Notes under the pieces: generated by a model
Told to the model about the DNA's origin: nothing
Database searches by the model: none
The model's input: the letters and a program-made list of their open reading frames with translations, nothing else
NCBI GenBank assembly: GCA_001790315.1
Contig: MGCE01000040.1
Location: 1-38,097 of the forward strand
Reading direction: 5' to 3'
Source: Candidatus Rokubacteria bacterium RIFCSPLOWO2_02_FULL_72_37
GTDB lineage: Bacteria; Methylomirabilota; Methylomirabilia; Rokubacteriales; CSP1-6
Length of the DNA: 38,097 nt
Program-made: the position numbers and the translations under genes
Shown: piece by piece, positions 7,525 to 8,694 of the stretch
Position numbering within the stretch: the stretch's first letter is position 1
Layout: every line of letters starts with the position of its first letter

Positions 7525-8694
7525 TCAGCCGATCGCGCAGGCGGCGCCGCCGTCCACGTGGATCGAGAGATCCTTGATCGTCGGTGACGTGCCGCAGAGG
7601 GGGCACTTCGGATCGCGGCGGAGCTTGACCTCGCGGAAGCGCATGCCGAGCGCATCGTAGGTGAGCAGCCGACCGACCAGCGGCTCGCCGATGCCGAGGA
7701 GAAGCTTGACGGCTTCCGTCGCCTGGACCAACCCGACCACTCCTGGGAGCACGCCCAGGACGCCGGCCTCGCTTCAGGATGGCACGAGACCAGGCGGCGG
7801 CGGCGTCGGATAGAGGCAGCGGTAGCAGGGCCCCTCGTTCGGGACGAAGACCGTCGCCATGCCCTCGAACTGGAAGATCGAGCCGTGGACGTTGGTCTTG
7901 CCCGCCAGGTAACAGGCGTCGTTGACCAGGTAGCGGGTCTCGAAGTTGTCCGAGCCGTCGACGATCAGGTCGTAGTCCGTGATCACGTCCATGACGTTGT
8001 CGACGGTGATGCGCATCGGGAGCGCGATCACGTTGACGTCGGGGTTGATCGCCTTGATCGTGCGCGTGCCGGACTCGACCTTCGCCTTGCCGATGTCCGC
8101 GGTGGTGTGGAGGACCTGCCGCTGCAGATTCGTGATGTCCACGACGTCGCCGTCCATCAGCCCGAGGGTGCCGACGCCCGCCGCGGCGAGGTAGAGGCCG
8201 ATGGGCGAGCCGAGCCCGCCGGCGCCGATCAGCAGGACCTTCGAGCGCAGCAGCCGCCGCTGCCCCTTGTCGCCCACCTGCGCGAGGAGGAAGTGCCGGC
8301 TGTACCGTTGGATCTGGTCCGGGGTCATCGGCACCTCACGGACGACGGGGAGGCCCGACTGGACCCATTTCTGGTAGCCCCCCTGGAGGTTGATGACCGT
8401 CGTGTAGCCGAGCTCGCGGAGCGCCTTCGCGGCCAGGACCGAGCGGAGCCCGGTCTGGCAGTAGAGGACGATCGGCGTGTTCGGGTCGGTCACGGCGGTG
8501 CCGATGCGGAACTCGAGGAAGCCGCGGCTGATGTTGTTCGCCGCCTCGATGTGCCCGTCGCGGAACTCGTCCGGGTCGCGGACGTCGATGACGACGACCT
8601 TGTCTCCGGACTTGAGCCGGCGCTCGAGGTCGGCGGGGCCCTCTTCGGGAACGACCCGGCGCGCCTCAGCGAGCATTTCCTTCAGGGTCTTCAT
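7525..8694 (-). CDS. Rhodanese-MoeB/ThiF (E1-like adenylyltransferase) fusion with an in-frame TGA at 7774-7776: candidate selenoprotein, otherwise a disrupted gene
   Basis: Track ORFs 7774..8745 and 7525..7752 are in the same frame and separated only by the TGA. The N-terminal rhodanese domain has the active-site loop YCQTGLRS. The ThiF fold has GAGGLGSP and the first Zn pair CYRC before the TGA, and the second Zn pair CPLCG after it. The junction reads [22 protein letters not shown], matching the conserved PSC(A/V)EaGVlG motif with the TGA at the Cys position. Confidence 0.7.
7741..7760 (-). promoter_or_regulatory. Candidate bacterial SECIS-like hairpin downstream of the in-frame UGA
   Basis: The mRNA reads UGA-agcgaggccggcg-UCCUGGG-CGUGCU-CCCAGGA. 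This is a 7 bp perfect stem starting 13 nt after the UGA, with a 6 nt apical loop that has G at its second position. Confidence 0.4.

Follow-up and report, generated by a model that had tools for sequence, protein, structure and literature searches.

Selenocysteine (Sec)-containing forms of MoeB, an E1-like adenylyltransferase, have been predicted in computational surveys. The family was one of 15 new selenoprotein families predicted in 2005 from the Sargasso Sea metagenome, where it was represented by 11 sequences (Zhang, Fomenko & Gladyshev; PMC1088965). It was encountered again in 2008 in the Global Ocean Sampling (GOS) data, with 19 sequences (PMC2398784), and is listed in the selenoprotein catalogues of 2022 and 2026 (PMC9312934, PMC13188914). 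Here we analyse a member of this family encoded on contig MGCE01000040.1 (assembly GCA_001790315.1) of Candidatus Rokubacteria bacterium RIFCSPLOWO2_02_FULL_72_37. The window is the whole stretch of 38,097 nucleotides (nt) and the gene occupies positions 8694..7525 on its minus strand. An earlier note, made from the sequence alone, had named MoeB-like proteins among the predicted marine selenoproteins, which the two metagenome studies (PMC1088965, PMC2398784) confirm. The gene is a new, mis-annotated member of a family catalogued since 2005, with another domain order, and not a new kind of system.

We consider it highly probable that 8694..7525 is an intact selenoprotein gene of Rokubacteria/Methylomirabilota, in which a selenocysteine insertion sequence (SECIS) would direct the insertion of Sec at an in-frame UGA, codon 307, and whose product would be a rhodanese-E1 enzyme making the thiocarboxylate of a carrier protein. 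PMC13188914 reports one Methylomirabilota genome predicted to hold 63 selenoprotein genes, and Sec-type [NiFeSe] hydrogenases have been reported from Methylomirabilota (PMC13582414), so that this is a lineage known to use Sec. Literature searches for Rokubacteria or Methylomirabilis together with selenocysteine found nothing relevant.

The window protein closely resembles the marine Sec-MoeB proteins. Sec lies at the identical column (CYRCLY..PPP..LVPS-U-..AGVLGVLPG) and the E1 domain is 55% identical. The likeness extends to the nucleotide sequence: the marine DNA that follows the UGA reads GTC CTN GGC GTG CTC CCR GGR with the same spacing (PMC1088965 supplement), and the hairpin has the same CGUGCU loop, nearly the same arms and the same 13-nt distance from the UGA. 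In both, Cys homologues are widespread and the evidence for the family is computational only. They differ in that the rhodanese domain is C-terminal in the marine proteins (the MoeZ/MOCS3 order) but N-terminal in the window protein, and in that the marine genes have a lower G+C content and tolerate a mid-stem mismatch. The window gene, moreover, belongs to a soil and groundwater lineage (Rokubacteria) with 70% G+C, in which the Sec form is in the majority (78/80 closest species-representative genomes). In three Sargasso sequences (AACY01471790, AACY01605093 and AACY01590187) the fifth stem position, a leucine wobble base, is A or U opposite C, a combination never seen in the 146 Rokubacterial genes described below.

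Several relatives carry cysteine at the same column. The Cys-type N-terminal-rhodanese MoeB proteins of family NF006444/PRK08762 (Rokubacterial, Binatia and Acidoferrum homologues P0002-P0035) have the same architecture, with about 390-405 residues and 72-84% identity, and the same VLGVLPG peptide, zinc site and rhodanese loop. They differ in having TGC or TGT at codon 307, followed by Ala or Gly and not Ser, and in their downstream codons, which are varied and form no stem. Uba4, MOCS3 and MoeZ (MoeBR) also have an E1-like domain fused to a rhodanese domain, and Cys202 of C. thermophilum Uba4 aligns with codon 307 of the window gene; in these enzymes the domain order is reversed, the residue is Cys and not Sec, and the substrates are Urm1, MOCS2A or CysO/MoaD. 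In Uba4, Urm1 becomes bound to Cys202 as a thioester, and the rhodanese persulfide then attacks this bond (PMC7527816). By analogy, the mechanism of the window protein is best modelled on the Uba4/MOCS3/MoeZ-type enzymes. E. coli MoeB (1JW9) and ThiF (1ZUD) conserve both CxxC zinc motifs and the Cys187/Cys184 column but are without a rhodanese domain and take their sulfur from separate proteins. In ThiF, an acyl-disulfide links Cys184 to ThiS.

The two minus-strand open reading frames (ORFs) of the locus, 7774..8745 and 7525..7752, share a frame. Translated as a whole, 8694..7525 forms one frame of 389 codons and a terminal stop, broken only by TGA 7776-7774. The start was placed at ATG 8694 because the homologues all begin MKTL. 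The gene and its parts, in the order in which they are read, are as follows.

7525 to 8694, minus strand: predicted rhodanese-MoeB/ThiF selenoprotein gene, complete, 389 residues, running from ATG 8694 through the Sec-UGA at 7776-7774 to the true stop TGA at 7527-7525.

8359 to 8637, minus strand: N-terminal rhodanese domain, residues 20-112 (Pfam PF00581, E = 1.6e-20, 73.8 bits).

8458 to 8460, minus strand: rhodanese active-site Cys79 in the loop CQTGLRS, read directly from the sequence; a putative persulfide carrier, by the role of this residue in the rhodanese family.

7600 to 8304, minus strand: ThiF/MoeB E1-like adenylyltransferase domain, residues 131-365, spanning the UGA (Pfam PF00899, E = 2.6e-84, profile positions 1-237 of 238).

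7816 to 7827, minus strand: first zinc-site CxxC, C290/C293, before the UGA, aligning with ThiF C169/C172 and MoeB C172/C175.

7774 to 7776, minus strand: in-frame UGA, codon 307, predicted to be read as Sec at the catalytic-Cys position of the crossover loop (structure-sequence alignment and codon survey).

7741 to 7760, minus strand: candidate SECIS hairpin with a 7-bp stem, UCCUGGG/CCCAGGA, and a 6-nt loop, CGUGCU; the stem begins 13 nt and the loop 20 nt after the UGA.

7594 to 7605, minus strand: second zinc-site CxxC, C364/C367, after the UGA, aligning with the C-terminal CxxC of ThiF and MoeB.

Homology shows the predicted product to consist of an N-terminal rhodanese and an E1-like MoeB/ThiF adenylyltransferase. 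Residues C79, Q80, G82, L83, R84 and S85 of the rhodanese loop are invariant in the alignment of protein homologues (A1) and T81 is nearly so. The match to PF00899 scores 282.6 bits against a gathering cutoff of 28.1, and residues 125-370 align with ThiF (1zud) and MoeB (1jw9) at E about 1e-55. With U307 written as C in the query, the whole protein scores 526.5 bits against the NCBIfam model NF006444/PRK08762 ('MoeB', N-terminal rhodanese), above the cutoff of 449 and over profile positions 3-374 of 387. An N-terminal rhodanese joined to MoeB is therefore an architecture already known as a family. The MoeZ model NF005902 gives 398 bits, under its cutoff of 647, which places the protein outside the MoeZ/MOCS3/Uba4 type. 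The protein is assigned to MoeB on the strength of its NF006444 equivalog score, to which a nearby MoaB-like gene adds weak support, and the enzyme may also have roles in other thio-cofactor pathways.

Codon 307 aligns with E. coli ThiF Cys184 (1zud), with E. coli MoeB Cys187 (1jw9) and with the Cys of TSCGEAGIMG in C. thermophilum Uba4 (6yub), which is the crossover-loop Cys202. The second CxxC (C364/C367) is present in the product only if the UGA is read through. In these respects the earlier note described the locus correctly: two minus-strand ORFs in one frame split by TGA 7774-7776, a TGA exactly on the ThiF Cys184/MoeB Cys187 column, a four-Cys zinc site divided by that TGA, and an N-terminal rhodanese with an intact CQTGLRS loop in the reverse of the MoeZ order.

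A protein search returned about 40 full-length homologues (about 390-405 residues, 72-84% identity), which have Cys at the column of the stop in the motif PSC[A/S/G]EAGVLG, and about 75 clusters of exactly 306 residues (88-100% identity), all ending GLVPS. At the DNA level we used two sets of loci: DNA around the gene from the 80 closest species-representative genomes, nearly all labelled Rokuibacteriota or Methylomirabilota, and 80 soil-metagenome loci fetched with a Cys-type query. Codon 307 is TGA in 78/80 and TGC in 2/80 of the genome loci, with the downstream peptide kept in frame; despite the Cys-type query, it is TGA in 67/80 of the metagenome loci and TGC or TGT in 13/80. Thus, 145 loci and the window give 146 Sec-type genes, against 15 loci with TGC or TGT. 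The alignment proposed at the outset, to see whether homologues have Cys or TGA at this column, therefore yields both, and the Sec form is the majority form of rhodanese-MoeB in Rokubacteria.

These genes are otherwise uniform. Across the genome loci and the window, the TGA/TGC column comes after exactly 306 codons in 81/81 genes, 75 of which have the MKTL start, and neither frameshifts nor additional stops occur. For the 80 genes whose stop lies inside the fetched DNA, translation through the column gives 388-413 residues before a real stop is reached. The genome-derived TGA genes have a mean pairwise nucleotide identity of 82% (minimum 73%), which makes them independent sequences and excludes a base-call error or recent pseudogene. 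A single base change would turn TGC into TGA, which speaks for a sequencing or assembly error, or for a pseudogene recently derived by mutation of TGC or TGT. The other 145 loci, assembled independently (from 78 species-level genomes and 67 soil-metagenome contigs), have the same TGA, however, by which this explanation is effectively refuted; we give it next to no probability. It is also at odds with the absence of frameshifts and extra stops and with the purifying selection seen in the downstream part: the ratio of nonsynonymous to synonymous polymorphism (pN/pS) is 0.19 for codons 308-375, after the UGA, and 0.17 for codons 121-306 of the ThiF domain before it. As the two values are alike, the 82 codons downstream of the UGA must be translated and functional.

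TGA is also the commonest true stop in the window, ending 13/23 genes, and it ends the moeB gene too (7527-7525). The code is therefore not reassigned, and UGA307 needs a local signal. A scan of the 38-kb window found this to be its only in-frame TGA with coding-type composition on both sides; the same scan of the flanks of the 160 loci gave only neighbouring genes that share a frame by chance, apart from one variant moeB Sec site (L057) that had slipped through the filter. A single moeB mRNA would thus contain UGA with two meanings, Sec at codon 307 and the terminal stop.

Some further regularities distinguish the two types of gene. Sec-type genes have Ser (AGC/AGT) right after codon 307 (146/146), where Cys-type genes have Ala or Gly (15/15). 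Codon 306, just before the UGA, has C as its third base in every Sec-type gene (TCC/AGC) and is mostly TCG in Cys-type genes (codons 306-308, 7771-7779 in the window). This pattern could reflect an effect of the context of the UGA or a co-adaptation of the protein. The nearest neighbour of each Cys-type gene in the data set is another Cys-type gene. One metagenome-assembled genome (MAG), DATEMW01 (SMAG_U8953), holds a Sec-type (L036, codon at 6919) and a Cys-type (L063, codon at 1310) rhodanese-MoeB paralogue in the same assembly.

The local signal is provided, in all likelihood, by the hairpin at 7760-7741. Its free energy is -11.9 kcal/mol when folded as a 22-nt segment, and the mean over the Sec-type genes is -11.4. 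The model of bacterial SECIS (bSECIS) elements specifies a loop of 3-9 nt and an upper stem of 4-16 bp, a G at the first or second loop position, mostly with G or U after it, a distance of 16-37 nt from the UGA to the apical loop, and a minimum free energy <= -7.5 kcal/mol (PMC13188914). All four rules agree with the window hairpin, which has a 6-nt loop and a 7-bp stem, a loop that begins C-G-U, a spacing of 20 nt and the free energy given above. Loop positions 2-3 are G-U and invariant in the 146 Sec-type and 7 marine genes, and the stem has 6 bp instead of 7 in those genes with GGC at codon 318. The perfect 7-bp stem that the earlier note had placed 13 nt after the UGA is thus present as described, and so is its compatibility with a bacterial SECIS element.

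Evidence that this hairpin is not a chance fold comes from synonymous sites. Among the 79 Sec-type genes from genomes, 126 four-fold-degenerate codon columns are conserved, and their third bases have a mean entropy of 1.06 bits. The entropy is zero in only 5/126 columns, and these are the consecutive codons 312-316 (GTC CTG GGC GTG CTC), the hairpin; by our own estimate, the chance of five random columns being consecutive is about 5e-7. With the metagenome loci included, codons 312-316 show no synonymous change in 146/146 Sec-type genes. Codon 317 is CCA in 135/146 and CCG in 11/146, both of which pair with the opposite U, and CCA makes up only 4.3% of the Pro codons in the window. Among the 15 Cys-type genes the VLGVLPG peptide is retained but its codons differ (GTG/GTC, CTG/CTC, GGC/GGT, CTG/CTC, CCC/CCG/CCA). 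The 6-bp core stem is unbroken in every Sec-type gene (146/146), as against 0/15 of the Cys-type genes. The hairpin is held by nucleotide-level constraint in TGA-bearing genes only, and the contrast of 146 Sec-type with 15 Cys-type genes offers a clean definition of a SECIS element by synonymous-site constraint. The suggestion that Sec occupies the catalytic-Cys position of MoeB/ThiF is accordingly supported from three sides: the Sec/Cys codon pair, the selection acting after the UGA and a hairpin that complies with the SECIS rules.

These data also bear on the possibility that the UGA simply terminates translation, giving a split gene with a truncated 306-residue rhodanese-E1 protein and perhaps a C-terminal piece of 75 residues initiated on its own. 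Gene callers and public records do give 306-residue proteins: OGL06298.1 (P0066) is annotated as 'MoeB' and MEK7387274.1 (P0086) as 'ThiF family adenylyltransferase', both with 306 residues. There is an in-frame GTG at 7752 from which the second piece could start, and partial stopping at Sec codons is normal. The stop, however, falls exactly on the Cys column, and a product ending at residue 306 loses half of the four-Cys zinc site along with the region that corresponds to MoeB residues 187-249. The GTG at 7752 sits in the hairpin loop with no Shine-Dalgarno-like sequence before it, and the segment from the TGA to this GTG is conserved in frame. Nor does a split gene predict a Sec/Cys codon pair or a hairpin following the SECIS rules in TGA genes only. 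We therefore think termination very improbable. The mis-annotation as a 306-residue protein is systematic, recurs across essentially the whole Rokubacteria lineage and calls for correction. The database protein P0053 (389 residues), in which GLVP runs straight into YDALGMRF, is an apparent gene-model artefact that skips the UGA and the next segment.

A different question is which amino acid would be inserted. The UGA might be recoded by means of the same hairpin and SelB but as Cys, by a SelC*-type tRNA(ReC), in which case the product would be an ordinary Cys enzyme. The tRNA(ReC) decodes UGA as Cys given a downstream SECIS, and a survey of Sec-type genomes detected it in about 17% of them (PMC13582414); the sequence of the gene itself holds nothing that separates Sec from Cys insertion. 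Such a route would be a roundabout one, since TGC paralogues exist, even within one assembly (L036 and L063). In addition, a wealth of selenoproteins is reported for the phylum, the MoeB family is catalogued as Sec-containing, and tRNA(ReC) is not known from the lineage, although no search was made for it. Recoding as Cys is, in our estimation, only marginally less improbable than termination, and insertion of Sec is the interpretation that we follow below.

Several observations weigh against that interpretation. Selenium incorporation is a computational prediction for every member of the MoeB selenoprotein family. ARAGORN found no tRNA-Sec in the window and the 80 genome loci (868 kb). SelA, SelB and SelD were not found by Pfam among 29 further ORFs of the window, and none occurs in the fetched loci. 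Likewise, the window holds no ThiS/MoaD-like carrier ending in GG and none is present among the conserved neighbours of the loci; we infer that other parts of the genome must hold the genes for the carrier and for the Sec machinery. Regarding the hairpin, the whole window gave no Rfam match at gathering thresholds, and a permissive Rfam scan of 7600-7900 gave only chance-level small RNA (sRNA) matches; this blank says little because bacterial SECIS elements are family-specific. The local fold is ordinary for DNA with 70% G+C (z = -0.40 for a 76-nt window around the UGA). At this composition a single-sequence fold cannot discriminate, and the case for the hairpin is a comparative one. In the comparison of 17 Rokubacterial and 7 marine hairpins no stem pair shows a two-sided compensatory change, and a shuffle control was uninformative. 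Four pairs vary on one side with pairing kept (C-G to U-G, U-A to U-G). The covariation count has little power because the amino-acid code fixes one partner of each pair. On the question of the earlier note, whether the hairpin co-varies among homologues, synonymous sites are constrained in TGA genes only and double compensatory changes are missing. Finally, Cys187 of E. coli MoeB is reportedly dispensable, in work attributed to Leimkuhler et al. 2001, so that the position may not be catalytic in MoeB-type enzymes.

If Sec is inserted, the following sequence of events can be proposed by analogy with the enzymes described above. According to the standard bacterial mechanism, the hairpin 7760-7741 would act as the SECIS element and recruit SelB with Sec-tRNA(Sec), UGA307 would be read as Sec, and the ribosome would then read 82 further codons to the true stop, TGA 7527-7525. 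The E1 domain would adenylate the C-terminal glycine of a MoaD/ThiS/CysO-type sulfur carrier encoded elsewhere, as in MoeB, ThiF, MOCS3 and Uba4. Sec307, in the flexible crossover loop, might attack the acyl-adenylate and form an acyl-selenoester, comparable to the thioester of Uba4 Cys202. Alternatively, it might resolve an acyl-(per)sulfide intermediate, comparable to the acyl-disulfide of ThiF Cys184. The persulfide of rhodanese Cys79 would give the sulfur, producing a carrier thiocarboxylate for molybdopterin and possibly for other thio-cofactors.

A core enzyme of cofactor biosynthesis thus probably depends on selenium in a phylum that is abundant in soil and groundwater, and the strong selection for Sec at the crossover loop argues that the residue matters in rhodanese-fused MoeB-type enzymes. 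More tentatively, and with doubts of our own, we raise the possibility that Sec307 is the working nucleophile and forms an acyl-selenoester or a selenenyl-sulfide with the carrier, which would be the first E1-type chemistry on selenium. If this were true, molybdenum-cofactor and thio-cofactor synthesis in Rokubacteria, where the Sec form is the default, would depend on the supply of selenium, and the genes would represent a natural experiment settling the catalytic importance of the crossover-loop residue in rhodanese-fused MoeB. A more extreme version, in which the enzyme would transfer selenium and not sulfur to the carrier, is one for which nothing specific speaks.

The neighbourhood of the gene is syntenic across the loci and includes divergent rmlA/rmlC/rmlB-like genes, a 166-residue ORF, an HtrA-like protease, a MoaB/Mog-like gene and GlcD/F-like genes. 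The ORF of about 166 residues (about 6697-7200, minus strand; listed as ORF 6697..7407) follows moeB immediately on the same strand, has no Pfam match and is found in 47 related loci. The MoaB/Mog-like gene (4967-5485, plus strand; Pfam MoCF_biosynth) is encoded on the other strand at a distance of about 2 kb and is syntenic in at least 16 loci; it provides a weak link to molybdenum-cofactor synthesis. Divergent from moeB is a dTDP-rhamnose-type cluster at 8724-11228 on the plus strand, which comprises RmlA-like (8724-9677), RmlC-like (9464-10225) and RmlB-like (10080-11228) genes. The RmlA-like gene keeps its position in 62/81 loci and the RmlC-like gene in 44/81.

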